Shown here piece after piece: positions 25,701 to 64,000 of a stretch of 64,000 nucleotides of DNA (position 1 is the first letter of the stretch; each line of letters opens with the position of its first letter). Source of the DNA: Psilocybe cubensis (taxonomy: Eukaryota). A program made the position numbers and the translations under genes. The DNA is taken from contig CM038999.1 of NCBI GenBank assembly GCA_017499595.2, forward strand, positions 2,232,001 to 2,296,000, given 5' to 3'. The notes below the pieces were generated by a model, which did not search any database, was not told the DNA's origin, and saw only the letters and a list, made by a program, of their open reading frames with translations.

Positions 25701-26147
25701 TAAAATGACCGTTTTGTGAAAACTATGCAGAAAGCAACCTGGTTCGCAAAACACGGAATTGGAGCGCTTAGAGCGCGGGGCCCATAACCTGTTGAAGCAG
25801 GCTACTTGGCAACCTAGTTATACAACGTAGGGCGCAGGAATAAGCAACCACGAAGCATCTGAAGTCCGAAGTGAGTAACTGAGTGAATTGAGCAAAGTGC
25901 TAACAAACTAACCTGAAGTCCGAAGTGAGTAACTGGGGACTTTAGGATGTAAACTAGAGTGACTATATACTGTGTAGACTCAAATACTCTGGTCTACCTA
26001 GGTCTACTCTGGTCCGGTCCAGACCAGTCTATGGACTGATAAATATCATGTGTCTAGAATGGTCTGAAGAACAAATGAAGATAAGAAGAAAGTAATCTAA
26101 TCTGATAAGATAGCAAAGTGAGGGAGACATAGAGAGCAGTTTTAACA
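22726..26147 (-). mobile_element. Antisense copia copy of the same family (5' LTR 25790-26147, PBS, gag-PR, truncated IN, start of RT), interrupted by the array
   Basis: ORFs 24157..25527, 22991..24121 and 22720..23112 on the minus strand. The LTR has an approximately 20-bp deletion. RT stops at QGGPN exactly at the array LTR end. Confidence 0.95.
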
Positions 26148-42100: not shown

Positions 42101-43958
42101 TATCTCTGAGAGAGCTGATTTTGACGAAAGGTACTTCTTAGGAGTGTCCACTGGCCCTATGCCAAAGTTTGATCTTCTTCCCACTTCTTCTGCAAGTGCA
42201 CCACCTCCCAATTCAGGGGGGACTCTAATGGCTTCAATTTTGATGATGATGAGGATGACTCTACTCCAAGTCCTATCATTTAGCCAGAAGTGCCTATTGC
42301 GCCTCCTGAACAGCCAGCTAAACCGCCACAGCCTAAGGCCGTTCCTGCACCTTCTCCTAAGCCTGCACGCTGCCAGCGTGCTCCAGTTGATCCTGCAACG
42401 TTGAGACACACTACTCGCATTCCTAAGCAGCCTGGTGAATGGTGGAAGGTCTCACATGATCCTGAACCACCTGAAGCTAATGATCCTGGATTTGAAGAGG
42501 TGGAGTTTGCTGGGCTTGTTTCAAGCGCAGATCCGCGCACATTCAAACAAGCAATGAAAGCACCTGATGCGCACATGTGGGAAGAGGCTGCTAATACAGA
42601 ATTCAATTTCTTGCAGCACAATCAAGCTTGGAAGCGAGTTGAGCTCCCTCCAGGTCAAAAGGCAATTGGCTGTGGTTGGGTCTTTAAAATCAAGCAAAAT
42701 GCAGATGGCAGTATAGAGTGCTACAAGGCTCGTATTGTTGCCAAGGGCTACAGTCAGCGCCCTAGCATTGATTACCATGAGGTCTTTGCTCCTACTGTCC
42801 AAGGCAGATGGACCTCAGAATGGAGATGAGGTGGAATTTATGCGAAATGTTCTCTACCTCAATGCAGTTGGCTCCTTGCAGTATCTAGCCACCATGACCC
42901 GTCCTGACATTGCTTTTACTGTGTCCTATCTCGCACGCTTCAACTCCAATCCTGGGCCTAAGCATTGGGCTGCGGTTAAACATTTATTCCGCTACCTCAG
43001 AGGCACTCTGGATTACAAGTTGACTTATTCTGGCGCTGTGGGCCATGATAACTTTGTCACCTACACTGATGCTGCACATGGTAATTGTGTAGATACTGGA
43101 CGCTCTACAAGTGGTTATTTGACCGTTCTAGCTGGAGGTGCTATTGGCTGGGCAAGCAAACTCCAAACTGTTGTAACTCTGTCTACTACTGAGGCAGAGT
43201 ATATTGCTGCGGTGGAGGCAGCCAAGGAGATTGTGTGGATGCCCAATATCCTTGAGAAGTTTGGCTACACAGTTACTGAGCCCTCTGTGCTGCATATGGA
43301 CAACCAGTCATCTATCAGTGTTTCCAAGAATCCAGAGCACCATGGACGGATGAAGCACCTTGATTTGCGCTATTATTGGCTTAGGAATGCTGTTGGTGTT
43401 GGAAAGATTTCTCCTTCTTATATTCCTACTGATTAGCAAGCTGCTGATATTCTTACCAAACCCCTCTCACCTCCTAAAGTGGACTTTTGTAGAGATAAAA
43501 TGGGTCTCAAACTTTAATATTTCTTTCTCTGTTTTGCTTTATTTTTCTTTGTTCTGGAGACTTGTCAGAACAGGGGGGAGTGTTAAAACTGCTCTCTATG
43601 TCTCCCTCACTTTGCTATCTTATCAGATTAGATTACTTTCTTTTTATCTTCATTTGCTCTCCAGACTATTCTAGACACATGATATTTATCAGTCCATAGA
43701 CTGGTCTAGACCGGACTAGAGTAGACCTAGGTAGACCAGAGTACTTGAGTCTACATAGTATATAGTCACTCTAGTTTACATCCTGAAGTCCCTAGTTACT
43801 CACTTCAGACTTCAGGTTAGTTTGTTAGCACTTTGCTCAATTCACTCAGTTACTCACTTCGGACTTCAGACGCTTTGTGCTCGCTTATCCCTGCGCCCTA
43901 CATTCTATAACTAGGTTGCCAAATAGCTCACACTGCCCCGAGCTTGCCTGCTTCAACA
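39191..43958 (+). mobile_element. Two-LTR degenerate copia copy (LTRs 39191-39568 and 43581-43958; TSD AGTCC)
   Basis: AGTCC at 39186-39190 and 43959-43963. Retains integrase HHCC (WHRRFAH...CEPC) and SDLKGP. A 572-bp RT deletion at 42796/7 removes YIDD; many stops. Confidence 0.96.
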
Positions 43959-45398
43959 AGTCCATATTCCACTCACATTTCTTACGGACAAGTTCTGTGC
44001 CTGCAGAAATGGAATATCCATGGACGCATTCAACGATCCACTTACAGTAAATACAACTACCGGTCAATTAATCACATCATCCAAAACATTGTCTACAGTA
44101 GGAGAAACTGAACTCACCTTTGACAAATGGCACCAAGCCTGGAGACAACTATTACAACTCATTTAACAGTACATGCCAGATGAATACAATGATTGGAATC
44201 AGCACTTTACCCAAATCCAAGACGCAGGAAGTTGTTCCAAGCACTAGCCTCTTTGGATTGCATACAACGCAGAAGTGCATCAACAATCAGTAGTTTCAGG
44301 TATTGATCCCAAAGAACATCACATTGGTTTATGGAATGACTTAGAAGTGCGATACAACAAAAACCAAATTATAGAGGCAATAAATCACAAACAAAATCCT
44401 TGCACCTCACATTCCAACTACAATCAATAGTTGTCATTGCGCTACTACCCTTATCAAAACCAAAACCCAAATACACCTAACACTTATAGATCCAGCGGAC
44501 CCTCTTGATCCTTTCCGAGATGCATCTTCTGTGGATCCAATGATCATTCCTCAAAGAGATGCACCGCCTTCAGACTCATCAATGAAAATCCCTGCCACAT
44601 CCAGAAAAACAGTCAGGCCAACGGAGACAACACATGAAGAGATAAAAACGGCAAAACATATTGCTTTAGCTGGAACGGAACTTGCGGCTGCACAAATAGT
44701 AACACACAAAGCTGCCACTTTGGCCAATATCTCTGCTTATTATGCAGCTCCTCTTCCCACAATGCACAATCATATCAACTCTGATTTTTTACTAATAAAA
44801 ACACCATTTAATCCCAACGCCTGGAAATCAACCCTTTGTCATCATGGTATTCTAGAAATCTTTAATGATGTTCCATTCAATATTAAACACGGATTCAACA
44901 TGGGAATTAAAACTACATCTTTTGAAACTTATACACCACCTAATCATACATCAGCTCTCAAACAACCACACGCAGTACTGTCACATATACAAAAAGAGCT
45001 ACTATATGGTTGCTATACCGGCCCATTTTCACGTTTAAGATTAGAGCTTCTAATAGGCCCGTTCAGAACATCACCACTTGGCATTGTTCCAAAAGCTGGC
45101 TCAACCAAGAATGAATTCAGACTTGTTCAAGATTTTTTATTTCCTAGAAACAATGTACACCACAGCTCCGTCAACTCCGAAATAAATATAGATGAGTTTA
45201 GATGTGATTGGGGAACATTCGACCAAATTGTTGAGCTTGTCCGAGATGCACCTCCTTTTGCAGAAGCGGCAACTCTAGACATAGATTCCACCTTCTGATG
45301 CATTCCAATCCAACCATCTCAACAATCAAGCTTTATTGTTGGCTAGAACAATCTATATTATATAGATCACGCCGCACCCTTTGGCGCATCAAGCTCAG

Positions 45399-45779
45399 CA
45401 CTTCATTGGACTGAAAAAAGTAACCTGAAGGCCCCCAAAAATGAATATTCATGGTAGCCTTCAGGCATGTTAAAAACTATATTTCCATAATGTTTTATCA
45501 AAAAAAAAAACTTAAAAATTATTTTGCATTTCTGATCTTTCTGTGTGACAAAAGTTTTTTACTGTCACACAAGAAAAACAATCTGTTGCTAGGGAGAAAA
45601 TTTTATGCAAACAATAAAACTTTTATATTAGATAGAGGTGTCTGGGGGCTTTTCTCTTGGTTAGGGTTAGGGTTATAAAATTGTCCACAAGAAAATTTGC
45701 AGTTTAAAGCCCAAGACAATGTATATTAATGCTTTGTAGCCTTGGCCATATTATTACAAACTATATATTAATGCATATG
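45399..45779 (+). repeat. Left TIR (381 bp)
   Basis: Reverse complement of 61825-62205 with one visible mismatch (near 45766); mirrored identical 75-aa ORFs lie 52 bp from each end. Confidence 0.96.
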
Positions 45780-47021
45780 ATTCTATATACTCATGTATTA
45801 TATTCTAGCAAGATATATATTTATCAATAGTAAAACTATAGTATTGCATTCCTGCAAGATACACCACTTGGAAACTATGTAGATTGGACACTAATTTGGA
45901 AGCATAATATGCACTAATTTATATTGCCCCACCAGCCATGTAAACAGCCATGTAAAACTATAACAGATGATATCAGGTTTAGACTAGTTTTAAAGTTTAT
46001 ATATCAGATAATATTACTATTTGGGTCTTGCATAGCCTGGTATAATGTTGTAAGATAATTAATTGTCTGACTATCAAGTTACAATGTCATATACTATAGG
46101 TAATCAGTTGTTCGGATTGGACATACATTCAAATTGATGGCCACTTACCATTGGTCAACGGCAAAATTATAACCTCCAAGTTGCGCCAACTATTAATAGC
46201 TCATAGAAATGCCATGCCACTTGTTAATTCAGATTGATGGCAATTATGGGAGGCAAAAAAAAGTTGGTTTGGACATTCATTTGTACTACCCATTTCCTAT
46301 TTGTTTTCTTTGAATTTTTTTCTATTTTCATGCAGATAGTATACATTAGAATATATGTACCAATTTTTATGAGAAATGGAGCACAGGATCTCAAAATTCA
46401 AATCAGTATCCAATCTGAACAACTGATCATCCATAGTATTCCAGTCATTGTCTAATATTATAACTAGAAAGAAGAATGTAGAATGTTTAAGTAAAAATTT
46501 GAAGTTGTAATTTTTGCTATTGACTAATGGTAATTGACTATTAATTTCAATAAATGTTCAATCCAAACAACTAATTACCCATAGTATATTGGCAATTTGT
46601 GATTTTTGCAATACAAACAAGTAATTATGCACTTCATAAAAACTTTATTTGTGCTTTATATAACTTTTATAAATTACATATAATACTTTTTGGTATATAT
46701 AAATTGTTTTGCAAATCATTTCAAAGATATAATACAGTTTTTTATATTGCATAATATTTTACAGCCTATTTATAATATATTTAAAGCCTGCAATTATATT
46801 TTAATACAATGTAGAATACTTTTCAGGCCAGAAAAATTAAATAATCTTTTATATATTTTACCACACACTTTTTGGTAGCTACAAATTATTTTGTAAACTT
46901 ATTCCAAATAATATAAAATAGTTCTTTACATTGCATAACATTTTAAAGCCAAATTACAATATATTTAGGGCGCTCAAAATTGTTTACTAAGAGATAAAAT
47001 TGATTTTATAGTTTCTGTAAT

Positions 47022-47247
47022 CTTTTACAAGTTAGATTAAGTGTTTAGAAAGTGCTATAAATTTATTTCATGAGATATAAAATAGTTTTGTCTGTCTACA
47101 AAATCTTTATGGCATATGTACAAAATATTTCTCCTTTTACAAGTTAGATTAAGTGTTTAGAAAGTGCTATAAATTTATTTCCTGAGATATAAAATAGTTT
47201 TGTCTGTCTACAAAATCTTTATGGCATACTTACAAAAAATATTTCTC
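47022..47247. repeat. Tandem duplication, about 112 bp x2, in the AT-rich left arm
   Basis: CTTTTACAAGTTAGATTAAGTG at 47022 and 47134. Confidence 0.85.
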
Positions 47248-47747
47248 ATTACAAAAAATATTTCTCTGGTAAGAAAATTATTGCATAAAGTTATACATGG
47301 CCCCATTTCATGTTGTATTCTATACAAGAATTAAACCAGACTTCATAATTTTGAGTATTCACACTTTATTACTGGCTTGGCCAGTGTTCTAGAACATGGA
47401 AGAGTGGAAAGTCAAAGACTTTGATATTGACCATGCCATGAGCACAGTCCGCCCCCAGCGGCGCTTCCCCAGTACAAAACAAATACAATATATTAGACGG
47501 TAGATCACCAAAACATAGCATAGACATGAATAAAGGAGGCAGCTAGAAAGATTAAAAGGAGATCAGAAAAGTATATACCCTATTAAAGATGAATGTAGAA
47601 AAGTAGAAAAACTATGTGCAGTATAAAGATTAAAAAAAAACATATTCGGCAAAGCAAAGTATATACAAATGCGGGCAGAAAAGAAAACAAAAACAGAATA
47701 CCTCTTCTCTAAGTAGACAACCCCACGCCAATTGCTACAAATTACAT

Positions 47748-50700
47748 TCACTTCCTGAAGACCTCGTTACTAGGACCAGCCATTCCTTCTTGAACATATC
47801 TTTTCTGATAGAAACGACCTGACGGAACCGGCGGGGAAGAATCATCAATAACAATTGTAGCCGGGCGGTTAGATGGGCGGCGAGCAGATGGCGGGCCTTC
47901 AGATGGGTAGTAAAACCCACCAATTTCGGGACGAGATGGCTGCTGCTGCTGGATAGGCCGTTCACGGGGCTTTGGGTCCCCTAAAGCCTTGTAGTAGGCC
48001 TGATACTCTTTGGGGACCTTCTGCTGGACATCTTTTCCAGATTGCTTGGAATGATGCCCTGTAAAATAATCCCGCAACTCTGGTGTATCATGCATGCCAT
48101 TTGGTCGATGCCCTTCACGGTAACGATAACCGGGCAAACCTTGGTCGGTCGGCTGGGGCTGGGGTTGGCGGTACTTCTCCGACACCTCCTGATACTGATA
48201 CAGTTGTTGTCGACTTGGCTGTTCTTGACGGCGTGGAAACTGATCTTGACGTTCATCGTGCAGCCTCCGTTGACGATCAGGGCCATTGCCGGGGTCATCC
48301 GCTGGCCTCTTCTTTGGAACCTCCTTGTGGACAACTGCGATCTCGGGATATTCATGCCCCATCTGGTACAACTCATTTGGAAATCCTTGAGGCTCAGACC
48401 GAGGGGTAATGATCCGATACTTCTCGAATTCGAAACAAGCAGGCGAAGACGCGGGCAATGGCTGTGGAGCAGGGGGAGGTGGAGGGGAAGGAGGTCCAGG
48501 AGGTCCAAGAGATGGATCGCGCCATTCAGGAGGGCTCGCGACCCGAAGGGTTTTGGACGAGCCCTTCTTTTTTCGTGGGTGTTTCTCCTGCTTGGCGACT
48601 TTGCAATCTCCAACTCGATACAATGCCCCTTCCTCGCGATTATCCTTGCCAGTTGTTGTGACGAGAACAATATTGTCGTAAGCTTCAGATCCAACCTCTG
48701 CAGCTTTGTCCTCTGTAACAATACATTGGATAAATTTATTAATGTTAAGAATGAAGCTGGATCATACCATCTGTCCATGCGACAAACTGGAGCCGTTCAC
48801 TGAATGGTTTAGAGAACGCCGAGATGAGTTGGGAAAGCTGTGTTTTGCCGGTGACAGAGAATTTGGAGTACTGTGGGTAGGGGACCCCCTTTGGATAATA
48901 AACCAGGCAGTATTGATGGTCTATGGCCCTTGCAGCAATCATTGCCCAAGAGAAATTCCCGCGGTTAAGGATCAAGTTGGCAGGAACAAATTTCACTAGG
49001 TATACAAAGTGACTGTTTAATGTCTGAAGGTGAGGAAACACAAAACACACATACAAGATTCATTGACGAGAACGAAAACCACAAGTTGACGTATGAATAC
49101 CACATCACTGTCTTGGAGCTTTTCAAGGGATTGCGTCGCAATTAAATCTGTCATAAAGTCCTTCAGAACTTCATCGGCGAAATACTTATCATTTTTCAAT
49201 CTCCGTGGCCCAACATTCGACGTATCTTTGGCTTTTCCTTTGCCTTTGGAATTGGACGCCTCGGCTTGAACATCGGCCTGTGTGTCCCGCTGTGACTGCA
49301 ACTCATGTGGTGGTTGTTGTCGTGAAGCTTTGGTCTGTTTTGAGGGACTGAGGATGTTGTTATTGGTAGGCAGACCCAACCGTAAACCTTGCGACAATTT
49401 GTTCTGAGAAAATGATGCTCTGAAATCAGGAATTAGTTACACAAAACATGGTAGTTACAATGCAAACTCACCGGCAGATGTCTGAGAAGACATTGCAAAT
49501 TTCATTGACAATCATCCCTTGTGTCTTCAGCATTGTTTCGACAATGTTGCATGATGCAACAACAGAATTCATCTGCCGTGCCGTTTGATCCTCGCCAAGG
49601 TAAAGGATGAAGGATACCAATCCCACTTCCCTATCCATAAGAGATGTCAAAACAGTCTGATGCAGAAAAGGATACACTTCAATAAACACTACTCAAAGAA
49701 AGAAGTCGAAAGCTTACACGATCGCGGGTCTCATCGATAATATCCTTGACTCTTGTTGATGCTGGCTTAAGACAGTCAAGCCTGAGTGACATCTCAGCTA
49801 TGGCCTCCTTGATTTCCTTACGGAACGCTCTGATTTCCTCCTCTGTGTGTCGATTTGGATCCATTCTTTCCTTGTAGGTACTTTGAGCAAGATCTTTAAA
49901 TTTCACATCTGTATTATCCTCAGTAATTATCTCTTATAACAATGAAACAGAGCGTACACGTCTCATTGTTAAGCTCTTTGCTGCGAGCAAGGCAGGACTG
50001 AAAGTCATTCCAGATATTGCCTCTTGGTGTGGGCAGCTCGATCTTGCAAAACTTTAAAGCAGTATTGAATGATATGTTATTTTTCTCTGCATACTTTGCA
50101 ACCTCTGCCTTCATTGCCAAACCAAGTTGACGACCTTCTTCCTTGCACTTCATGGAGACACGTTTTCCAATGCGAGGGAGGATGCCCTTGGTATCGCTGT
50201 CGTCCTCAGTCGAATCTGTGGAAGGACTGCTGGAACCCCTCATCGATGGTGCAGGGTAAGGGTTGGGCAGTGCAGGGGTGCCCGCTGCTTTTGCTGGGTG
50301 ATGGGACGATGCAGACAGGGCTACAGAGGCTGGCGTTGCTTTTGCTGGGTGATGGGACGATGCAGCCAGGGCTGCAGGGGCTGCCGTGGTCTTTGCTGGG
50401 TGTTTGGATGATGCTTTGGGTGCCGCGGGGGTGCCAGTCACCTTTGCTGGGTGATGGGACGATGCAGGCGGGGCTGCAGGGGCTGGCATTGCCTTTGCTG
50501 GGTGATGGGACGATGCAGGCGGGGCTGCAGGGGCTGGCATTGCCTTTGCTGGGTGATGGGACGATGCAGGCGGGGCTGCAGGGGCTGCCTTGGTCTTTGC
50601 TGGATGTTTGGATGATGCTTTGGGTGCCGCGGGGGTGCCAGTCACCTTTGCTGGGTGATGGGACGATGAAGGAGGGGATGCAGGGGCTGGCGTTGCCTTT

Positions 50701-51265
50701 GCTGGGTGATGGGACGATGCAGGCGGGGCGGCAGGGTCGTATTTGGGGTGACTGGACGATGTTGGCGGGACTGTAGGGGCTGCCAGTGCCTTTGTTGGCT
50801 GTATGGATGATGCTTTGGGTGCCGCGGGCGCTCCAGCCGCCTTTGCTGTAAGGACACTGCGCATCGATCTCCGCCTCGGTTCTTTCTCGGGACTTGAGAC
50901 CACAACCTCAAGCTGAAGATCGCAATCCTCAGACGCGTCCTCCATTTCTGTGTCCGATGCCAACCCATGACGAATATTAGCGCGACGACGCTTCGCTTGT
51001 GCTCTGGTTTGAGCGAAGTCAGAGCCACTGTCTTCGCTGTCATCCATGGCATTGTAGCGCATCATCTTGCGAGTCAGCGCCGAGGGCGCAGTCCCTTTGC
51101 CCGAGAAGATGGCGTCGTCGTCGACTTCATCCCGGTCCCCATCCACATCACTGGACTGCAGCTCATCATCTTCCTCGTCGCCCTCGTTTTCATCATCTTC
51201 GTTGTTGTCTTCTTCTTCTTCCTCCTCCTCCTCCTCCTCCTCCTCCTCCTCCTCCTCCTCCTCCT

Positions 51266-51296
<31 letters not shown>

Positions 51297-52881
51297 TTCC
51301 TCGTCGCCTTCGTCTTCCTCGTCGCCTTCCTCATCCTTGTCGCCTTCCTCATCCTCGTCGCCTTCGCCTTCGTCCACTGCCTGCAACGGGCGCAATGCTT
51401 TGCGAGGGAGACTGCTGGGGGGCTCTACCTTCGGAGAGGGCGGTTCTTTTTTTACTGGAACATGTTTTCTCAGCTTGGACTGCGCATGTTGAGCGGGTTG
51501 AAATGGCGATGGCGGAAGAGGTTCCATGTCCGATGTTGGGACCTCCGCTTGCTCCAAGAGAGTATTGGCCTGGTAACGTAGAACTCTGGCCTCCTGCTCA
51601 AGGCGGTCTGCGGCAAGATCAGAGGCTGGGAGCATATCTTTTTCGGCTTGTGCTCGAGCTGCTCTGGCATTCTGCTCCAGAGACACAGCGACAACCGCAA
51701 CTGCATGGGCACCTTCGCGACGATCTGCCCTGGTCAAGACTCGCCCTGGAACCTCTTTCTGCTTCCCTTTCACCACCTTGCGCTTCACCTCCTCCGCATC
51801 GCTCTTCAACTCTTGCTTCACCTCCTCCGCATCCCTCTCTACCTCCTGCTGCCCCGCATCCCTCTCCACCTCCTTCCCCCCCACGACCCTCTCCGCCTCT
51901 TGCGCCTCCCGCTCCGCCTGCTCTGCCATCATACATTGGTGGTCTATTTCCATCTGAATGCGTGCTTGCTCCGCCCGTGCTGCCATCCTTTCTGATCCGC
52001 TAGGGTCCGTGTCCGTGTGAGAAGGACTCGAAGGGGCACGCGTTTTGTAAACTCTCTTCTTCGTGCTTTTCGGTAGCTTCAACCCAGACATACGAATTCT
52101 AAATAAGTGTAAGCGATACATCAGAGATAAGTGACAAGAAAACAATGTTTTGACGCGACACAAGTCAGCGAACAACAGAGGAAATGCGACATAAGTCAGG
52201 AGGCGACATAAGTCAGCAAACAGGGCAAATGCGACATAAGTCAGCATTTGTGGTTGCAGAGGCGACATAAGTCAGCCTCAAAGCCTCGATAAGAAAGTGT
52301 TCGCGACATAAGTCAGCGAACAGGGCAAATGCGACATAAGTCAGCATTTGTGGTTGCAGAGGCGACATAAGTCAGCCTCAAAGTGGCTTCAAATAATAAA
52401 GGTAATCAAATTGACTTACCTTTCCGAAAGAGACAACATGGGAGGGTCAGGTGAAGACTGCCTCGCCAAAATGGCATCGGCAGCCTTGTATAGCTCAGCG
52501 TTGGGGGAAACAATCTGCACCCCCTTCATTGGAAAAGGCTGCAGGACGCGTGGCGGTTTAGGGGGAGGCGCTCCGGCTTTGACGTCAGGCAACGGAGTAG
52601 CAGGAGGGGGTGGCACGGCTTGCTCAGTGGGTGCTGGGTTACCGCGAGCAGCAGGAGGGGGTGGCACGGCTTGCTCAGTGGGTGCTGGGTTGCCGCGCTT
52701 TCCTCGAGGGCCCCGTTTAGCTCGTGGTGTCGGTGCCGGGACAGGTGGAGGAGAGGGCTGTTGTTGCTTTTTCCTCTACAGACGCGACTGAGTGCATAAT
52801 AAAAACGCAAAAAATAGAGAAAAAATGTACCTTGGAAAAGCGGGTGGGTTCACTATCATTCTTTCGCTTCTTGGGGGGCAT
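47748..52881 (-). CDS. KDZ cargo gene 1: predicted 8-exon, about 1493-aa low-complexity, probably nuclear protein with a possible degenerate HMG-box-like region
   Basis: Exons 52881-52831, 52775-52420, 52098-49958, 49908-49718, 49656-49472, 49419-49055, 48995-48768 and 48712-47748; all introns GT-AG and frame-consistent. Starts MPPKKRK; long D/E tract; PAAPPASSHHPAKA repeats; GNIWNDFQ...KFKDLAQSTYK. Confidence 0.8.
50270..50850 (-). repeat. Coding minisatellite (about 48-bp unit, PAAPPASSHHPAKA)
   Basis: TTTGCTGGGTGATGGGACGATGCAG and close variants recur about ten times. Confidence 0.85.
51160..51375 (-). repeat. (GAG)n/(GAC)n trinucleotide tract encoding poly-E/D
   Basis: (TCC)n and (TCG)n runs on the plus strand. 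Confidence 0.9.
52155..52377 (-). repeat. GCTGACTTATGTCGC motif array A (about 8 copies) inside predicted intron 52099-52419
   Basis: GCGACATAAGTCAGC repeated on the plus strand. Confidence 0.9.
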
Positions 52882-53321
52882 TATTCAACTGTAATTTTGG
52901 GGGGGGAGTTGGTTAGCATGTCGCCAACGTGGTTAAATAGCCCAAATTTTCCTATCGTAATGAGAAGCACCTTTCATTAATGAGATCGGGCAAGTAACGG
53001 ATGAATATTGAAAGACATTACCTCATTATGTTTTGCTCTGCTCGATGTCTAGGTAGAGGGAATGATACTCAAGTTAAATAAGTTATGTGGGATAGGATGA
53101 ACAACTGGGCAGCATACCTTCAACAGTGCAATGTATCTTCAACATTGAGCTCAGGTATCTATCTTCCTATCCCCTATTCCGTCCCCCTGTTCCGTGTAGC
53201 GTAAAGGATCGGTCGCGGTTTCGGAGTGATGGTAGTACCGTATGATTGGCGGGAAAGGGTTGTCGGATCGCATGACATAAGGTTCGGGGAATCTGTAGAA
53301 ACAGAGTGGAGTTATCGAGAT

Positions 53322-53541
53322 GGACATAAGTCAGCCCCCAGTGGCAGAGGACGACATAAGTCAGCCCTCGGAACGGTGGCAGAGGGCGACAAAAGTCAGC
53401 CCTCTGAAAGGTGATAGAGGGCGACATAAGTCAGCCCTTTGGAAGGTGGTAGAGGGCGACATAAGTCAGCCCCCAGGAAGGTGGTAGAGGGCGACATAAG
53501 TCAGCCCCCAGGAAGGTGGTGGAGGGCGACATAAGTCAGCC
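53322..53541 (-). repeat. Motif array B (7 copies, mostly 35-bp period)
   Basis: Copies at about 53322, 53351, 53386, 53421, 53456, 53491 and 53526. Confidence 0.9.
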
Positions 53542-53755
53542 GAAAGAAACCAAAGACAAAAGCTTGGTGCCTAACCATGGCGCAAAAGCCGTTGGTAAAC
53601 AAAGCCCAACAAACTGGCGAAACTTAGCAAACTTGGACTTTGCCGTTCGCACATCCAGTAAGCACATATGAATTAAAATATATCTTACCTGTAAGTAGAA
53701 TATGAGAGCAAATGTAAATATTTTGAATGAACTTGGAATGCTTAAGAAGTATCAC

Positions 53756-53849
53756 AAAAGTATCGTGGTCAACTGGAATCTCATGTTCGTTCCAGTGACC
53801 AGCAAAAGTATCGTGGTCAACTGGAATCTCATGCTCGTTCCAGTGACCA
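53756..53849. repeat. 48-bp tandem duplication, each unit an imperfect palindrome
   Basis: TGGTC(A)ACTGGAA...TTCCAGTGACCA twice. Confidence 0.85.
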
Positions 53850-54470
53850 CTCTCGTCTTGTCTCGCCGCGTTCGCTCTTCGCTCCCCCTCTTGATCCTTC
53901 TGTATTTACACGTAATTTTCAGTTTTTTTCCAATTTCTTCTTGTTCTATCATTCTATTCGTCTATCCAGTCTTTCCTTACATTTCTCTCCGATGTGGTTT
54001 CTGTCAAACTCCCTTTGACTCAGATCTCCTTGAATGTATGTATTGTATTCAAGTCTCTACTTAACTAAATTGCCAGTAGTAAGTAGCTAGTTTCCCTCAA
54101 CAAATTAATGAAATATTCCCCTGCCCGTCTCGCCCACAACATGTATGATTTCACTGCCAGTCCAGTCAGATGGTGTTGAAGTTCACTTATCTTATCTTAT
54201 CTCTCCATATCTTATCTCCCCTATCTTATCTATTCTTTGTCATAGATCAACAAACACGTAGGGTGTTTGTTGATTCTGCCTTGCGTTTCCCACGGACTTA
54301 TCTTTCCTTCAACGTTCACTCAGTCGTGTTTCCTTGCTTTCGTCGTTTTCGCTTGCTTTCATCGTTTTGGCTTGCTTTCATCGTTTTTGCTCCTTTTTTT
54401 CCTTCTTATCTCAGATCTTTTTCAAAGGTGAGTCTTCTTCCACAACTCTTCCACTCCCACCTTCCTGGGG

Positions 54471-54697
54471 GCTGACTTATGTCGCCCCCTACCACCTTTC
54501 AGAGGGCTGACTTATGTCGCCCTCTACCCACCTTTCAGAGGGCTGACTTATGTCGCCCCCTACCACCTTTCAGAGGGCTGACTTATGTTGCCCCCTACCA
54601 CCTTTCAGAGGGCTGACTTATGTCGCCCTCTACCCACCTTTCAGAGGGCTGACTTATGTCGCCCTCTACCCACCTTCCTGGAGGCTGACTTATGTCC
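54471..54697 (+). repeat. Motif array C (7 copies, 35-36-bp period) inside predicted 5'-UTR intron 54428-54726
   Basis: GCTGACTTATGT at 54471, 54506, 54542, 54577, 54612, 54648 and 54684; AG|GTGAGT donor and CTACAG|ATG acceptor. Confidence 0.9.
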
Positions 54698-54726
54698 ATG
54701 TCGATAACTCAACTTTGTTTCTACAG

Positions 54727-57148
54727 ATGCCCCGCACCACGAAACCTCCTGCTGCCTCCACTGACACTGACTCCTGTATGAATCTTTGTCTTGGTCTATC
54801 CGTCTTGACCCACAATGTCGCTGATAATCTTAGCAGTTTATATTGATGCATTTGGCAGAAAACGCGATGCTGTCACCCATCGAGCAATCATCGAAATATA
54901 CGAAGGAAAGCATTGTACGTAACTTTATTGCTCAGTGAAGAAATTTTTATCATCGATGTATTCTAGCTTATTCTGCCACGGATGCTCTGGCAATGGCAGA
55001 ATTGTATAAACTGCCCTACAAAATCCCATCGCTGGATACCAGTTCTTTCACTGGGCTCGATGCCAACAAACATCCCTACCCCTCATCTTTTTTTGTTACC
55101 TCGCCAAATATGTACAAAATACCTGACATAACAGAGGACTCCGAGGACGTCACCATTCGAACAGATGGCCGCTACGGATACGGCGATTTCACATTGTGTC
55201 CACAGTGGTACTTTCAGGGCACTTACTATCTCCCCTACGTTAGCCGCAAGCCATCACTTCTGTCCGACTGTCCCTATGCTGTCATGTGGTACAATTTGAA
55301 GGAAACCGACTTCATTCACAATCAAACTTCCATTGTCTCTGGCATTGGACGTATCCGTTCCGACCTCCTTGAAAAACTCATTTCTGCACGTAAACAACTC
55401 ACTGCCAAGGCTCGTGAACTTGATAGCGACCCCCGCTTCACTTATGTTCAACTATCAGAGCTACGCTACAGCCTTCAATTGCTTCTATTTTCTACAGTGG
55501 CACTGCAATGTGCCCCGCAAAACTACACGATGACTTTGCTCACCTTCACTGGTTGCCAACGCCATTACTTGGAGGCACTGGCTTGCTACGATTTTTTGAT
55601 GAAATACCGAGATATGGAGATCAACGAGTCGGTGAAAGAAGTCCCGGTGAATGACAGGCTAATGGGGTGCTTGACCACCTCTGTCGAAATTGCTACGGAG
55701 ATGTATTATTGAGGAGTGCCCGTGTGGTTGTTTAGAAAAGCAGAGGATGTATCTATGGAAACGACAGTAATTTCCTCATCGCGCATGTGCCCTATCCGGA
55801 ACATCGTCCTTGAAAGAATGCCCGGCGCAAATGTTGTCTTTAAGGGGGATGCCAGTGCGATTCGCAATCGAGCTTGCCAAGCTCTAAAAGTTGGTAATGT
55901 TCGCCTCGGTCATAGCGCGTATATGTCGCATCCCGGTGAATTTGCGGCGCCGCCAAGTAAGTTCTTTCTGCCCAGTATAAAAAAGTTGTCTTCGCTTCCT
56001 GACTTTCCTCGACTCCCTTCTCAGACCGTCAAGTTATTGCGGCCTACAATCAACCCTGTTCCTCCAGCTCTGTGCCACTGGCCCGTCATCCTGAACCTAC
56101 GTTTAATACGACCTCTAATCTCGCTCGCCCTGCGCAACAAGTTTCACGCCCAGAAGTCTTGATGGTGCCTCAAATGCGATATGTTTTAGAACCCATATCA
56201 GTGAATTTTGTGAAGTTCTCTTACACTCCTCTGCCCAGTTGGCCGTCTGCTAATACATCCTGGGTCAATGCATTGCATCAAGTGAGGATTGATCCTTACA
56301 GAGTATGGGACCACGGTTTTCTGGATTCCTATCGTGGCTATGCGTTCTTTGATCCTCACATCCTTCTTGGAGAAGACTGGGACCGGGCACGCGGTAAAAC
56401 GTATCTTTTGGCATGGCTTGCAGTTCGCCCGGCGTGGATGGCAAAGATGATCAACCCGACTGTTCATCAAGAGTATCCACAACCGCAATCTTGGAGGGAC
56501 TTCCTTATTTTTCACATCGCAAAGCTTTTGCGGGTGTCTGATCGCGACGTCAAGTGCAATCCCGACCGTTCCATCAGTGGTCCAAACAAGCGCCGCAAGC
56601 AAGGCAATCTCATCGCTTATTTTGACCTTCCTGTGCGGAATTATCATAATACAACGCAGATTCGCTGGAGAGATGACGATGTAGGCTATGCTGGCTCTCT
56701 GGATGTCGAAAGCATGGTTATCAAACCTTCTGTCCCTCGTGAAGTTGTTTGGGATCTTTTTGAACACAATTTCCGTTTCGAATTGCTTGCTCTTGATCGA
56801 TCCATTTTCCCTCGGCACCTCGTCAGCGATCAGCTCTCACTTGCTCGGGACACTTTGGTGACAAATTGCTTCCCTCAAAATGCACTTATCACTGTACAAT
56901 GGCCGGAACGTGATGAAGGTCTGGGGGCACGGAGATACCAGGACCGTGTATTATATGTGGAGTCACTGCGCAAGCTCATGTCGGATTGGCCAGGCTCTGT
57001 AGCAACGGCTTTGCGGCGCATGTCCCTTTCGCCCAACAGCACTGAACAACAGGTACTCGATGTTGAAGCAATAGCTTTCCCCTTCTATTGCCAAACATTT
57101 TTCGATTACTTCGGGCGTGCCGCTACAATTCCTCATCACAGGCCCTGA
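54727..57148 (+). pseudogene. KDZ cargo gene 2: uncharacterised globular protein with one in-frame TGA at 55710-55712
   Basis: Predicted introns 54776-54833, 54915-54966 and 55957-56024 join the 239-, 148- and 358-aa ORFs in frame; the frame continues GVPVW after TGA. Motifs DGRYGYGDF, WDLFEHNFRFELLALDR, FYCQTFFDYFGR. Confidence 0.75.
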
Positions 57149-57498
57149 GTGTCTGCGGGTATTTTGATTTCTTGCTGTCAGTATCATTCAACGCAGTCAC
57201 TTTCATTCAATGACATATTTACATGCTAACCCTTCCTTTTTAGATTTCATTGTATATATCATCATTGTTTTGGGATGGGATCCCCCTTTTTGTATGTATC
57301 TATCTTTGCCTGGATCCCTTTAATGTCATTCTTTGTGCGGAGTGCAAATTCCGCATTCCGCCTTTTTTATAGAATGACAGTTCGACACCTGTGGGAGTCC
57401 TTGTAAGGCGTCACATATATATAACAATAAAGGTAAGACCGTGCTCCTTTCCTTCTTTTTCCCCGTCCATCAAGGTCTCCTTGCTCTCCAAACAACAA

Positions 57499-60400
57499 AT
57501 GCCTCGCAACTTCCGCCGTGTCAGAAACCAACCGCCTTCTTCACCACCTCCTGTTGGGCATTTCTTGCCATTAGCAGAGGTTCTACCGCTTCGTCACCCC
57601 TATGGCACAGCAACGCAAGGTCTTGCATTGGAACCGCAAGGTCTGCTGTATGGCCCAAGTGGAATTTTTTCCCAGCCATTGGGGGTTACCGATATTGCAA
57701 TTCCTCAGCAACCAGGCTTTGTGAATGATATGAATATGGGTGATTTGATTGAAGTAGATGAGTTACACAGTGTTGATCCCGAAAGAGCTGCAAAGAACCA
57801 GCGCCTGTGGCAGATGTGGAATGAGGTTATGATTCCCAGGCTTATGAAGCCATATCTCAACACATATCGTGAAACGTCGGGTATGCGTGCTCCAAACCGC
57901 GTTCGGTACAATGTCGGGTGCCAGGGTTGCTCCAATGGTGGCCTTCTCAAAGTGTCTTGCATCTTCTTTGAAAGTACGTCAAATTGATTATGGATCAAGC
58001 TGGTATAGGAGGTCTTGACATGTTATTAGGAATTGAATGCATCACACTGTGTACCTGTACTGAACCTGCATTGCAGTTGATGCAGAGAGGGTTCTTTCCT
58101 TGTGCACCAACACAGCCTACTCTTGCTGTAGATCTCAGTGTGCTGGATTTTGTGCAAGAATTGTTTACCAATATGGCACCAAACACTGTGGGATGGTGCA
58201 ATACTCTTGAAGCATTTTTAAGTTCTCGTAATTTCAAATTAACTACAAGGGTATGATGAATCTTATCTACTACTAATATTGTAGGCTAATGTACTCACTG
58301 CAGAATAGTCTCCGTGATAGATTTGCCTCTGCCATGAAATGGTATGCTACTCTCGTCAACCGGAAAGATTTGTTGATGTTCGATTATTTAAATCGTGTTC
58401 GAGTATCAGAATTATTTATTATGGAGAATAGTGAGTTTAACATTTTAAAATATAACATCTAACTAATCAATATCAATAGATCCTAGTCCAGATCAGAGTG
58501 CTTATGGTCATTCCACAGTTACAGAGTCAGAAGAGGATGACATAAATGAAGCTAATAGTCCTCACACCCACACTATGGATGTAGATGCAGACAAAGATGA
58601 TATACCAAATGATAATTCTGATACTGGTAGTAATACCGGTAAGTGTACAAAATACTTTTGCAGTTTATTAGGACTAAAATAAAACCAGATGATTCACTTA
58701 CTCGTCCAAGTGAATACCTTCGAGAACGCTGTCCATTATGTTTTGGAGGAGAAAATTGGTATAAATCTGAAGATTTGTATGTTTATATTTTACAACTTGA
58801 CTTCAAAACTAACATTGTAATGGAAGGGTTGATGCAATTGTTTGCATTGATGCCTGTTTTACTCAAAAACGTCGCAAATCTCGAGGTCATGCATGGGCAG
58901 CACCACATATCCATCCACAAACAATTTTTATTTCTGAAGATGAGGTTAAGGATGTGGAAATTACTGTTGAGCAAAAAAGATCTAAAAAATCCAATAATAA
59001 TATGGAAAATAATCAGACAGCGAATTCTGGAGATGCAGAATTTGAGCCTGGAATGAAAATTCCAATTTCAGTTCTTGATGGATGCAATGAATCTTTTATT
59101 GCAGCAGATGAAAGACGTATTAAAGCAAGTACTGCTTTTTTTTCAGATACAGGGCTTATGGGGCTTCTTTGTCGGCATGATCGACCTTTATGGTTGGTTA
59201 ATATGACTTCAGCAGGTGAAAAGCAATTTTATGCTTTAGCATTAATTCAGAAGTTATTTGAACACATTCCTAATACCATGCGAATTGGCTTATTGTATGA
59301 TATTGGGTGCCAGCTGCATCGTAGCTGTGTTAAATTTGGTTTTTTAAATAATATTCTTGACCGAATTGTGTTTGGAATATCTGTATTTCATGCATATGGC
59401 CATCAGTGGGCCTGCCAAATTGTCTATCATCCACGTAAATGTGAAGGTTTTGGCTTGACAGATGGTGAAGGATGTGAAAGATTCTGGAGCTTAATTAAAC
59501 CATTAATTCCATCATGCCGTGTTTCTGGATATTTTACCCGTCTCCATACTATTGATACCAAGATTAAAAGTCTTGATTACTCATCTTTGCTTAGTATGGG
59601 GACTTGGCTTCAGCGCAAATGGAATGCTATGAATGCAAAAAAATTTGAAGCAGAAATAATTCTAAACAATATGGAGCAAAATGGATATACAAAGGATTAT
59701 TTGGCAATACAATGGAATGAACAAGTTATTTACCAAACCAAGCCTCTAAAAAAGCAATCTAAAGCTTGGGCAAATAAAGAAATTGAAGAAATTTTACTTT
59801 TGTCTCAAAATTTGGATACCTATAAAAAGGAGTGCAACAGATTAGAGTCAATGATTGAGACTGGAATATATGAAGAAAATATTACACTATATATAATCCA
59901 AGAAAATTTGGAAGAGCTACAGGAGAAAATTAGCAAAACCAAAAAGGCAATTAGCAATAAACGTGCAAAACTATCAGTGGATGGAAGACTCAATCTTACT
60001 AAATTGCTTAATAATGAATTTTTAAAACTGCGAATGAATGCTCTTGCTCTTAAACAACGTATACGTGATCGCTTACGAATGCGGAAATTTGAGCTTGAAA
60101 ATATGGAACGTGCATATCGATCATCCATAAATGAAGCTAAATTACAAAAACATGTTCATCAACAAATCAAACGAAAAGAGCCAGGTATTCAAAGTTTGGT
60201 CAGAAATTATAACAAAGCCTGTGTTCAACTTGAAAGTATGATTGCACAAAAAAAAGCACCACGTGGTGCAATAGCACCTTTGCCTATTATTATGGAAGGA
60301 CTTTTTAAGCTAGATGTTGATGATAATATTTGGCAAGATATTGGCTTTGATGATGATGAAAATGAAACTATAGAAATCCCAGATTGGCTTGGAAAAGAGG

Positions 60401-60882
60401 ATGTCAGAAAAGGCATAAAAGCATTATTGGAATATAACAGATGTATTGAAGAAGAAAGAAGATTAATTGAGGAAAAAAAGTCAATGATTCAATGGTTTCG
60501 AGAAGAGTGGGTAGTTATTATCAAAGCAATTGGTCAAATGTCAGAAGATATAAATGTGCTCTACCAATTAAAGCAAAGAAAACAATTTCTTTTGAGATTG
60601 TATTTATCCTGGGAACTTCCTGTACGTGGAATACCAGGTGAAAACAATACATTATGGGGACCAACAAAGGAGGAAATCATAAAAGCTAAAAAATATGAAA
60701 CAACACAAAGTGTTCTATATAAAGAATATACAAATGAGGTTGCTGATATTGAAATGGAATTAGAAGATGACAATGAATATGAAGATGAACATGATAATAA
60801 TGATGATGTGATTACAGATTTTGAAGATGGGGATGAAGCTGAGCTTTTGGATCAAATTGAAGAAGATTTGTCCACATTATAA
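57499..60882 (+). CDS. KDZ transposase with CxC1-like cysteine cluster, 6 exons, about 1041 aa
   Basis: Exons 57499-57973, 58030-58250, 58304-58430, 58480-58638, 58689-58776 and 58827-60882 (3126 nt, open). Motifs QLMQRGFFPCAP, LRERCPLCFGG, CIDACFTQKR, LCRHD, GEKQFY, YDIGC, FHAYGHQWAC, GLTDGEGCERFWS. Confidence 0.93.
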
Positions 60883-61587
60883 AATATTTAATTTACTAAG
60901 TTTCTTTGTATTTTTATAAAAAAAAAAGTTATGGCAATATAAAATTATTGTAAGAGGTCAAAAAAACAATATATGTGATGTATAAAATCAATTTGTAATC
61001 TAGATAAATAAATTTATGATACTAAAAAAGTATTGATGTCAAGTGTAAATTAATTTATATGCTAAATAAGTAATTTATAGCATTCAAAACGTATTCTGAA
61101 TATACCATAAAATATTTAACTTGTATAAAACTAATTTGGGATTCCATAATGATTTGTAGGCATTAAAAATATTATACATAACTTGTAGAACCCTAAACCC
61201 TAAACCCGCAAAATCATTTTACTCACATAATAAACTAATTTAAACTCCATAAAATCATTTTACTCATATAATAAACTAATTTAAACTCTATAAAATTATT
61301 TTGTGGCCATTAAAATGTTATAGTTAAACTTGTAAAAGATTATATGAACACAAAATAATTTTACTCAACATATAAAATATTATATAAACACAAAATTTAT
61401 AGCCCTATAAGTAAAAGCAACAACTAGGCAATGCCATACATTGTAATATATAGAAATTTGTATTGATATATTTATATTTATAGTATAATATTGCTTATAA
61501 AAGTAATAATATAAAATAATAGTCTTAGTAGATGCAATCATACACATTAATGTGTAGTTTATGGTGATGTGGCAAAGGTTGCAAAGT

Positions 61588-61801
61588 ATTGATATATAGT
61601 ATTTAGGATTTCAGACTGCAAGACATCTTATAGGATTATGTGCATGGTTACTATTCGAAATCTTGTTTCTTATAGGATTATTGCTCGGTCAATAATTGAT
61701 ATATAGTATCTAGGACTTTAGACTGCAAGGCATCTTATAGGATTATGTGCATGGTTATTATTCCAAATCTTGTTTCTTATAGGATTATTGCATGGTCAAT
61801 A
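61588..61801. repeat. Tandem duplication, about 107 bp x2, next to the right TIR
   Basis: ATTGATATATAGTAT...CATCTTATAGGATTATGTGCATGG at 61588 and 61695. Confidence 0.85.
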
Positions 61802-61824
61802 TTCCAAATTTTGATAAATGTAAC

Positions 61825-62205
61825 CATATGCATTAATGTATAGTTTGTAATAATATGGCCAAGGCTACAAAGCATTAATATACATTGTCTTGGGCTTTAA
61901 ACTGCAAATTTTCTTGTGGACAATTTTATAACCCTAACCCTAACCAAGAGAAAAGCCCCCAGACACCTCTATCTAATATAAAAGTTTTATTGTTTGCATA
62001 AAATTTTCTCCCTAGCAACAGATTGTTTTTCTTGTGTGACAGTAAAAAACTTTTGTCACACAGAAAGATCAGAAATGCAAAATAATTTTTAAGTTTTTTT
62101 TTTTGATAAAACATTATGGAAATATAGTTTTTAACATGCCTGAAGGCTACCATGAATATTCATTTTTGGGGGCCTTCAGGTTACTTTTTTCAGTCCAATG
62201 AAGTG
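61825..62205 (-). repeat. Right TIR (381 bp)
   Basis: Inverted copy of 45399-45779. Confidence 0.96.
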
Positions 62206-64000
62206 AGCTCAGAAGGCGTTTTTGGTCGGTCAGCAGATGCACTTATGGCAATTTTTTGTGCAAAAGGGATAACGGCATGTAACTGGGTAGACAACTTTGT
62301 TTTCTTCCGCCTAACATAGGTGCTCAACAATGAAACAATTAGCAAAAGCAACAATATGACTACTAACATTTTCTCATCCTATACCCTTGACACAATCTTC
62401 TCAATAACTTTGCCCTTAGGCTGGCCCTGGAAACAGTCTAAAACAAAACCCTTCTCATAAAACTTTCAATACCTTGGTTTTATCTGGAGCCTACAACATA
62501 AAACAATCAAAATACCATCCGAGAAGAAATCCAAATACCTAGCAAAAATTGCAAATTGGACCAAAGACGACCAAAAATTCTTGCTTAGAGAAGCAGAATC
62601 ACTCTTTGGCATCTTAGTACACTGCTCATTAGCCATCCCGGAAGGACGTTTACGCCTTCCTGCCCTATCTCGCTTTGTTACCTCCTTTTCACATACCACA
62701 TCCATCCATGCCCAATGAACACCTGGAAAACTCACACTCAATAACATTAACTGGTGGAATGAATGTTTACAACATGACTTCTGTGGCTCATCCTTAACCC
62801 CATCACCGCCACTAAGCCCAATAGAATTCTGGGTTAATGCATCAACAGACTGGGGAATTGGGCTTGTTTTTAATAAGAAATGGTAATCATAGAAACTAAA
62901 ACCACACTGGAAATTGAACGGATGCAACATTGGCTGGGCTGAATTCATTGCCATTGAAATAGGCCTATTATACACTATCCATTCCGGTTACACAAACACT
63001 TACTTTTTGATTTGCTCTGACAATCAAGGTGTCATCCAAGCTATTGAAGGAGGAAAATCACGCAGTCCCGAACAAAACAAAGTGTTACAATAAATTACAT
63101 CCCTTCTTACCACTAATTCATTATGGATAAAATCCTTATACATACCTTTAAAGCAAAATATTGCAGATGGACCTTTGTGTGGATTTTCCTTACCATACTT
63201 ACCTCGATCCAAATTTTTTTTTCTTTTCCATACACACTTGAACCCTTTCTACTATCTTCTTCACAAATGTTAGCATAGATAACCACACTTCGTAAATCCA
63301 TACATATTAATCCTCAATAACCCAATAATATTAAAATTAAATCAATGCACAAAATGAAATACAGCACACTCAACAATCCGCACACATACCAAACAAAGCC
63401 AAAGTAAACATGCACCGTTGTATCCACACCTCTTTCCAAACACTACACAACCTATTACCAACGGTGCGTTCTTCAGAATTTACATCTGTCTCAACCTTCA
63501 ACCCGGCCTCTTACCTATCCCTTAAAAAAACTTCATACTTTACTTCTGATGACTTTTCTCTTGTACCAGCAAACCATCAAAGCTTTCCTCTCAAACAACC
63601 CCAAAGTTTACCACCTAATTGACCAAACCCTTATAGCTTCCATCGCAGAAAGACCTTATCAAAGCAAAAAACACACCATACTACCCAGCCTACGTTATTT
63701 GATTGGTTACCTCTGTGACAAGTTGCCATGGCCCATAAATTCTCCAAGAAAACCCATTAACAACTTCAAAACGCACTTGCCCACAGCTAGACCTCATCCA
63801 CCTTCAACAAATACTCTAACTCTATTCAACATTTTCAAACATTCTGTGAACTAGAAGGCGTCCCAAACCACAAATGCTTCCCAGCAAACAAGTTTGTACT
63901 ATGCACCTTTGCAGCATCCGGTGCAGGCTCTTCTTCCTTCTCAACCATCCGGAACAAGATTACCGCCATAAAAGGCTGGCATGACTTGCATGGGGCACAA

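Follow-up and report, generated by a model that had tools for sequence, protein, structure and literature searches.

Arrays of covarying hairpins in predicted introns of a KDZ transposon from Psilocybe cubensis and in related elements

Introduction

In En/Spm transposons of the CACTA type, subterminal repeats that lie within a few hundred base pairs (bp) of the element ends and occur in both orientations are bound as duplex DNA by TnpA. Here, we describe arrays of a short motif in a KDZ transposon of Psilocybe cubensis, which occupies positions 45399-62205 of the stretch of DNA analysed, a 64,000-nucleotide (nt) piece of contig CM038999.1 (GenBank assembly GCA_017499595.2, positions 2,232,001 to 2,296,000 of the forward strand) that is referred to as the window throughout. 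With En/Spm this locus shares a short motif reiterated in a cut-and-paste transposon that has an accessory protein, and in both cases the motif is presumed to be self-regulatory and to be read by an element protein. Unlike the TnpA sites, however, the arrays (52155-54698) are neither subterminal nor of mixed orientation: they lie 6.8-9.3 kb from the ends of the 16.8-kb element, in predicted introns and in sense orientation only, and the stems of their hairpins covary.

Among hairpins acting in RNA, HIV-1 TAR and phage lambda boxB, recognized by Tat and N, respectively, are single structures in an untranslated leader that are read by a protein of the element itself. The arrays resemble them in presenting a bulged or small-loop hairpin early in the nascent transcript and, as proposed here, in controlling self-expression, but differ in that they form modules of three to eight hairpins, which several genes of a DNA transposon carry in predicted spliceosomal introns, with a binding protein that is only proposed. 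The coat-protein operators of phages MS2 and PP7 are single-copy translational operators in which recognition resides in bulge and loop, while arrays engineered from them vary the stems. Their layout recurs in the hairpin described here: at the bottom a stem whose sequence is free, then a single bulged base, and above it a short stem closed by a small loop; yet, the natural operators are single-copy and there is no sequence similarity. In the P element, the splicing of IVS3 is controlled via exonic pseudo-5' splice sites bound by host proteins. Common to both would be a DNA transposon with cis-acting RNA signals that resemble splice signals, but that of the P element is exonic, does not form a hairpin and is not repeated in an array. 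Protein-bound hairpins that act in cis have precedents in viruses and phages, and what appears to be new is their occurrence as a natural array in spliceosomal introns of a eukaryotic DNA transposon across many lineages.

KDZ transposons are large and active in mushrooms and pathogenic yeasts, and their regulation and escape from silencing constitute an open question. Movement of Cryptococcus KDZ1 even in the presence of functional RNA interference (RNAi) is reported in a preprint (2024; 10.1101/2024.08.15.608186). In the main text of the paper that presents them, Kyakuja-1_LB and Kyakuja-2_LB are characterized by a KDZ transposase, 7-bp target duplications and 5'-CA..TG-3' termini, and the Kyakuja families given there have no inverted ends and carry a TET/JBP gene (Kojima, 2025; PMC12730594). 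The element in the window differs from these by inverted ends of 384 bp and by the absence of a TET/JBP domain from the open reading frames (ORFs) scanned. The words "subterminal", "tandem repeat" and "hairpin" have no occurrence in the main text of PMC12730594, a count that leaves aside its supplements, and no description of such arrays was found in full-text literature searches or in that paper, a survey that did not extend to the founding work of Iyer et al. (2014) or to supplements.

Results and Discussion

Hairpin arrays in the window

Allowing up to two mismatches, the 15-mer GCTGACTTATGTCGC occurs 22 times in the window (15 exact copies, five with one mismatch and two with two mismatches), against a chance expectation of 0.05, and this number was reached in none of 100 shuffles. 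All copies are confined to three blocks, arrays A, B and C (Table 1). A preliminary description of this DNA had counted about 22 copies in three arrays and had placed A and B on the minus and C on the plus strand, following the transcription of the two divergent genes concerned, all of which is confirmed. It had furthermore ascribed a periodicity of 35-36 bp to B and C and different spacers to A, and Tandem Repeats Finder indeed returned a period of 35 with 6.4 copies for B and 6.8 copies for C. The same program revealed a higher-order unit of 106 bp with three hairpins each in array C, while in array A three motifs, spaced 28, 31, and 41 bp apart, are found in a unit of 100 bp.

Arrays B and C belong to opposite arms of the same inverted duplication; these arms enclose the divergent promoter region and take in the 3' splice site CTACAG together with the first ~12 nt of the next exon. 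B and C are therefore not independent of each other, so that within the window it is only the comparison of A with B/C that shows the motif outliving its spacers. The preliminary description, which had noticed the quasi-palindromic nature of the motif, had overlooked this inverted duplication as well as the hairpin and its covariation reported below.

The 15-mer constitutes the top of an imperfect palindrome, from which a bulged stem-loop of ~24-27 nt can be formed. Read 5' to 3' on the sense strand, the hairpin of the window consists of free outer bases, GC, an unpaired T, GAC, TTAT, GTC, GC, and the complement of the outer bases. Every well-preserved copy folds with the bulged T, and the outer stems vary from copy to copy, being AAAT/ATTT, GTTC/GAAC, and GAG/CTC for the three hairpins of the array A unit and AGAGG/CCTCT or GGGG/CCCC in arrays B and C. 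In its general form, the hairpin comprises an outer stem that varies in sequence and spans 4-6 bp, followed by a G-C/C-G step, a bulged U (two nt in some lineages), the GAC/GUC stem and a loop of 3-6 nt that starts with U.

Covariation of the hairpin stems

Related elements were collected as 80 metagenome loci (530 kb in total) by scanning contigs with a profile built from five sequences of the accessory protein, which is encoded in the window by the gene to the right of array C. Covariation was assessed in two sets of hairpins. The first, drawn from the window and the 80 loci and chosen on the core alone, comprised 104 unique clustered copies. Here, stem positions 2-5, counted outward, form Watson-Crick pairs in 90, 77, 73, and 69 of the 104 copies, respectively, with all four pair types well represented, while shuffled partners gave means of 27-34 and a maximum of 50. 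The second set consisted of 78 hairpins of equal length, and as these had been pre-filtered for at least four of six outer pairs, the first set provides the cleaner test. In the second set, 91.4% of the cells are paired (68.4% after shuffling), 195 cells are altered on both sides (64 after shuffling), and the covariation score amounts to 0.554 compared with 0.117 for shuffled partners, a value that was reached in none of 500 shuffles, while slid registers scored at most 0.165. Eight columns, all belonging to the apical sequence, are invariant among the 78 hairpins.

With regard to pairs that deviate from Watson-Crick geometry, G·U outnumbers A·C both among enclosed pairs (49 vs. 22; p = 0.023 against a composition-corrected null, shuffled partners predicting a G·U to A·C ratio of 1.24) and overall (74 vs. 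37; p = 0.017). Judged from these alignments, compensatory covariation and strand-specific wobble, the two features by which a structured RNA is recognized, are both apparent. A search of Rfam at a permissive threshold yielded Acido-Lenti-1 as the sole match, with 17.6 bits against a cutoff of 37 and an E-value of 0.8. The TGACT within the motif also fits the DRACH consensus for N6-methyladenosine.

Conservation among related elements

The strict core, defined as CTGAC-N2-7-GTCG, is found 146 times in the 530 kb of loci (14-28 times in shuffles). A generalized hairpin, defined by a 5' bulge of 1-2 nt, GAC, a loop with initial T, GTC and at least four of six outer pairs, gave 292 matches compared with 2-7 in shuffles. 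At least two such hairpins are present within 1.5 kb of the accessory gene in 32 of the 44 loci that contain the 5' part of this gene and at least 700 bp upstream of it. After grouping of the loci at 80% nucleotide identity, at least three hairpins were present in 14 of 21 lineages, and three further lineages carry variant arrays outside the generalized pattern. The accessory proteins of the array-bearing lineages, at least 14 in number, are only 24-45% identical. Clusters comprise three (27 cases), two (25), six (4), four (1) or seven hairpins (1) with spacings of 26-36 nt, and the triplets match the three-hairpin higher-order units of the window.

Loops differ by lineage. Most are TGT or TGC, the window has TTAT, and TCC/TCT/TCA, TGTT and TTCGC occur elsewhere. 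In distant lineages, the architecture is kept while the letters change, e.g., outer stem-TA-GAC-TTTGC-GTC-G-outer stem or GGC-TT-CGACG-TTT-CGTCG-GCC. In such lineages, TAGAC, TTGAC or TCGAC stands in place of CTGAC, and the stem formed by GAC and GTC, the 5' bulge and a loop with initial T are retained. Different palindromic repeats were observed at the equivalent position in three loci, namely an 11-bp stem with a 9-nt loop at about -1300 from the gene in L022, ACTGAC-TTTGGC-GTCAGT in L062, and CGACG-TTT-CGTCG in L071; these repeats suggest remodelling of the signal in the loci concerned and not its loss.

The preliminary description had named absence of the arrays from related elements as an argument against a function. 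They are present, as stated above, and their occurrence in lineage-specific versions at the same positions supports the view, expressed there, of a selected cis-acting array tied to the genes of the element. Its claim that the 15-mer rather than the spacer is the conserved unit is borne out by the orthologous introns of loci L006 and L004, in which 60 of 60 core positions are identical, compared with 51 of 71 in the outer stems, 20 of 33 in the spacers and 95 of 158 in the remainder, i.e., the core is under purifying selection. Between these two introns, an outer stem has undergone the compensatory change from CTCGAG/CTCGAG to CTCCAG/CTGGAG. In intact copies, the motif therefore does not share the decay rate of its spacers, the condition under which the preliminary description would have been refuted. 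On the other hand, slower decay of the core does not extend to L021, the most mutated copy aligned, where the core (54/60) is not better kept than the spacers (29/33). The core losses in L021 partly resemble CpG transitions, and GTCA, in which the CpG has been lost by transition, is carried by 7 of the 78 hairpins.

Strand, location and predicted introns

The hairpin nearest to the accessory gene lies on the sense strand of that gene in all 33 of 33 loci. Where both orientations are present upstream, 21 of 24 loci show a clean minus block followed by a plus block, and the three exceptions bear additional plus copies more than 7 kb away. While 159 hairpins were found in 62,981 bp upstream of accessory genes, there were none in 80,355 bp spanned by the genes themselves.

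The arrays of the window fall into predicted introns (Table 1), the placement of which is based on splice-site consensus, on the kept reading frame in the case of intron A and on homologous introns in relatives. At the sequence level, these exhibit what is expected of spliceosomal introns, namely the GT...AG fungal consensus and a frame restored on removal: excision of intron A leaves the reading frame intact (...SLSER/IRMSGLKLPK...), and intron C ends immediately 5' of the ATG of the right accessory gene. Four relatives (L001, L004, L006, and L010) follow the same plan, with a short coding exon 1, GTAAGT or GTACGT, the array, YAG and a conserved exon 2. L015 has three hairpins within an intron of the Cys-cluster (CxC) coding part of the transposase gene, and in L043 the divergent partner with minus-strand arrays is the transposase gene itself. 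Sense orientation in predicted introns, as originally suggested for the window, is thus also found in the relatives. The first hairpin begins ~43-76 nt downstream of the 5' splice site, and the distance from the last copy to the 3' splice site is 38-39 nt in B and C and ~31 nt in L010. A separate CTAAC is located nearer to the 3' splice site than the array in L001, L004, and L006.

Folding of intron A as RNA is predicted to yield -98.8 kcal/mol (z = -7.5 vs. shuffles), and that of intron C -107.9 kcal/mol (z = -8.5), with six separate hairpin copies in the fold. The array introns folded in this way reached z-scores of -8.5, -7.5, and -5.2 against shuffles, introns A and C being predicted to fold as strings of separate hairpins.

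Interpretation of the arrays

Flanks that are free in sequence but complementary, a fixed bulge and loop start, an orientation that follows transcription and a bias toward G·U point to selection for a fold in a single strand. As pre-mRNA is the simplest such single strand, we favour, with middling confidence, the reading that the arrays are intronic hairpins of the sense-strand RNA that serve as a multivalent protein-binding tag controlling the element's own expression. According to this proposal, modules of three hairpins 26-36 nt apart would reside in the first, and sometimes in further, introns of Kyakuja-type KDZ transcription units and would have been duplicated to 7-8 copies in the present element, such that each pre-mRNA of the element displays a multivalent tag. 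A protein specific for both sequence and shape would read this tag co-transcriptionally, with the invariant apical bases as its recognition site. The conserved accessory protein and the CxC/KDZ transposase, the only proteins common to the related loci, are candidates for reading the tag, as is a host factor. The likely purpose would be control of the element's own expression via splicing or intron retention, via transcription, or via protection from RNA-triggered silencing.

In a more specific and doubtful version, the hairpin triplets would be an RNA "self tag" common to all Kyakuja-type genes that recruits the element's accessory protein, which would either keep co-transcriptional silencing (spliceosome-coupled RNAi or heterochromatin/5-methylcytosine) away from the active copy or guide the transposase to transcribed copies. 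If true, Tat/TAR or N/boxB would have a counterpart in a eukaryotic DNA transposon, in the form of a natural multi-hairpin array. Irrespective of this, a hairpin conserved in at least 14 lineages offers a testable handle, consisting of a defined cis element and a candidate partner family, and a practical marker for the annotation of KDZ elements and their first introns. Natural multi-copy arrays of protein-binding hairpins are few, and the hairpin would join them as a new family.

Several considerations weigh against an intronic RNA tag. The introns holding the arrays are predictions, and the 5' site of intron B, GTTAGG, is weak and a candidate only. Sense orientation is partly inherited by descent, and arrays that act as DNA and are barred from coding sequence would likewise end up in introns. 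A fold of the non-template DNA strand that tolerates G·T would yield an identical signal, and the excess of G·U is modest (p about 0.02), with hairpin copies that are not independent of each other. All 80 loci were selected for the accessory gene, so the linkage between array and gene is not an independent result, and 12 of the 44 loci and 7 of the 21 lineages have no arrays under the hairpin definition. Finally, no recognizable RNA-binding fold is seen in the structure model of the accessory protein.

Among the alternatives, a site in duplex (or cruciform) DNA for a DNA-binding protein of the element or for its transposase, which would control transcription or counter methylation in a manner similar to the TnpA sites of En/Spm, accounts for a near-palindromic core with a conserved CpG, for arrays arranged symmetrically about a divergent promoter and for the loss of this CpG by transitions in decaying copies (L021, the GTCA variants and the diverged copy in run X8 described below). 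Moreover, in related cut-and-paste elements a protein of the element binds short motifs present in many copies. However, a protein reading a duplex would not need an outer stem that remains complementary though its sequence is free, and strict sense orientation, G·U in excess over A·C and a one-sided bulge kept across lineages also speak against such a site. The transposase gene of L015 has its array in an internal intron, at a great distance from any promoter, and separate AT-rich subterminal repeats are better candidates for transposase binding. The action at the DNA level that the preliminary description had considered hence fits less well than a folded sense strand, and we regard it as unlikely.

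The second alternative invokes splicing without a dedicated protein, with the CTGAC copies acting as branch points, be they multiple or decoys, or with the hairpins doing no more than compacting an unusually long intron. CTGAC conforms to the fungal branch consensus CTRAY, every array for which this can be judged is intronic, and the distances of the hairpins from both splice sites given above are compatible with it, although placement is suitable only for the last copies of B, C, and L010. On the other hand, the branch-like bases are paired inside the stem, CTGAC gives way to TAGAC, TTGAC or TCGAC in distant lineages that retain stem, bulge and T-initial loop, and the CTAAC of L001, L004, and L006 is independent of the array. 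Compaction alone leaves the invariant apical sequence unexplained. The switch of multiple branch points that had originally been proposed for both genes is accordingly hard to uphold, and we rate this alternative slightly below a site in duplex DNA.

A source of small RNAs or a processing substrate, with hairpins cut from the spliced intron, would be in line with intronic, strongly folded arrays on the sense strand but is very improbable, since bulged stems of ~10-11 bp are too short for Dicer-type processing and no match above the cutoff was obtained in Rfam. On the same ground of stem length, a substrate of RNase III/Dicer was rejected. A functionless minisatellite, arisen neutrally from slippage and inverted duplication, scarcely deserves credence, as the near-identical units of B and C and the difference in array length between strains are outweighed by maintenance in at least 14 lineages with highly diverged accessory proteins, stem covariation, core identity and strict orientation and location, all of which contradict it. 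Two further candidates were ruled out, namely a subterminal transposase site by position and orientation of the arrays, and a CRISPR-like array by stems that are only 5-12 nt apart and by spacers that are repeated within arrays.

The host transposon and its genes

The arrays are situated near the middle of a complete KDZ transposon of 16,807 bp (Table 1), which shows the characteristics of Kyakuja, i.e., the KDZ domain PF18758, a 7-bp target duplication and 5'-CA..TG-3' termini.

Table 1. Positions of arrays, predicted introns, genes and element ends in the window.
Feature	Position	Strand	Remarks
Array A	52155-52376	minus	8 hairpin cores
Array B	53321-53540	minus	7 copies, period 35; upstream of the ATG of the left gene (52881)
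Array C	54471-54698	plus	7 copies, period 35
Inverted duplication	53281-54738 (arms 53281-53541 / 54470-54738)	both	87% identity; B and C are its arms
Predicted intron A, left gene	52099-52419	minus	GTAAGT...TTTAG, 321 nt
Candidate intron B, 5' untranslated region	53293-53575	minus	3' site CTACAG clear, common to arm C
Predicted intron C, 5' untranslated region	54428-54726	plus	GTGAGT...CTACAG, 299 nt
Left gene	49920-52881, may extend below 49920	minus	begins MPPKKRKNDSEPTRFSK; low-complexity protein
Right accessory gene	54727-57148	plus	N-terminal exons matched by full-length homologues P0003 and P0004
KDZ transposase gene	~57499-60882	plus	N-terminal Cys-rich exons begin near 57499
Left terminal inverted repeat	45399-45782	plus	384 bp, starts CACTTC
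Right terminal inverted repeat	61822-62205	minus	99.5% identity to left one, ends GAAGTG
Target duplication AGCTCAG	45392-45398 and 62206-62212		7 bp, flanking both element ends

PF18758 was detected by Pfam in the ORF 58813-60882 with an E-value of 1.1e-60 and 205.5 bits against a cutoff of 26.6. The ORF 57373-57987 has no Pfam CxC match, yet a Cys-rich segment is visible in its translation, and the relative L043 gave a CxC1 match with an E-value of 1.1e-05, just under the cutoff. The element in the window does not have a hairpin array before the KDZ gene, unlike L015 and L044.

The accessory protein belongs to a large, uncharacterized fungal family of about 650-790 amino acids, with 3,105 representatives at E ≤ 0.001 and 711 at E ≤ 1e-30. 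A Pfam scan of the window protein and its relatives found no domain. The structure model of the protein is confident (pTM 0.78), and in the homologue P0003 two domains span about residues 50-346 and 470-787. Searched as a whole model, it produced no fold match in the PDB by Foldseek (best E-value 0.84), a generic helical bundle only in a wide VIA-align search (best Z 7.2, residues 145-264) and unnamed clusters in the ESM Atlas (best score 0.83). As it resembles nothing solved, the model is of no help in identifying the binding partner.

The left gene encodes a protein with an acidic (D/E) tract and PAAPPASSHHPAKA-type repeats. At 50271-50848 and 51172-51374, the gene contains a coding tandem repeat of 204 bp (51 x 4), which specifies the PAAPPASSHHPAKA-type repeats, and TCC/TCG repeats, from which the long acidic tract stems. 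For this protein neither a Pfam domain nor more than isolated matches in related loci (tblastx, 1e-6) were found, and the upstream ORFs of different lineages are not alike. An ORF of the window is 100% identical to a P. cubensis protein. The public model P0002 (~55800-58600, 100% identity) continues from the 3' half of the accessory gene into the 5' exons of the KDZ gene, which may be a mis-annotation or a hint of one transcript for both genes.

The GC content is 0.31-0.36 within the KDZ transposase gene (57000-61000), to which it falls from 0.46-0.49, and 0.45-0.58 in the accessory genes. This could reflect a chimeric origin or differing mutational histories of the two halves of the element. 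AT-rich subterminal regions (46650-47300 and 60890-61400) contain reiterated short palindromes of the type AAAAT-N-ATTTT. In L003, L005, L007, L009, and L010, such palindromes form 20-21-bp tandem arrays of up to ~25 copies at about +5.7 to +6.3 kb from the accessory start. They are distinct from the hairpin motif and, judging by sequence and position, probably the end-binding sites of the transposase. In addition, each of the 384-bp inverted ends holds two telomere-type repeats (TTAGGGTTAGGG; 45661-45672 and 61932-61943), and a pair of the CCCTAAA type is present in the right subterminal region (61191-61207).

Copies and strains

The stretch is present in eight DNA runs from three studies. 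In run X11, which is labelled P. cubensis, none of 10.8 million raw DNA reads matched the stretch, the only one tried, a result consistent with absence of the element from the X11 strain. No RNA run was among those containing the stretch, and X13, a presumed RNA run with the same species label, likewise gave no match, which carries no information on expression. Run X8 contains a second, diverged copy of the element over 51900-55100. C>T and G>A changes account for 69 of its 91 differences, a pattern that, as read from the sequence, is the signature of methyl-cytosine deamination or of mutation resembling repeat-induced point mutation (RIP). In this copy, array A is 145 bp shorter, one 51-bp repeat unit is missing at 52598-52650, and the CpG of the motif is altered at 52364/52366. 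On account of the uneven presence among runs and the diverged copy in X8, the element looks recently mobile and polymorphic, with decaying copies.

Outside the element, positions 1-25802 of the window are taken up by a copia-type unit of 4,714 bp (gag, integrase, and RVT_2) in at least five head-to-tail repeats with 98.8-100% identity, which start at 811, 5525, 10239, 14953, and 19668 and are accompanied by inverted partial copies at 22726-25802. Older copia-type fragments are located at 39191-43958.

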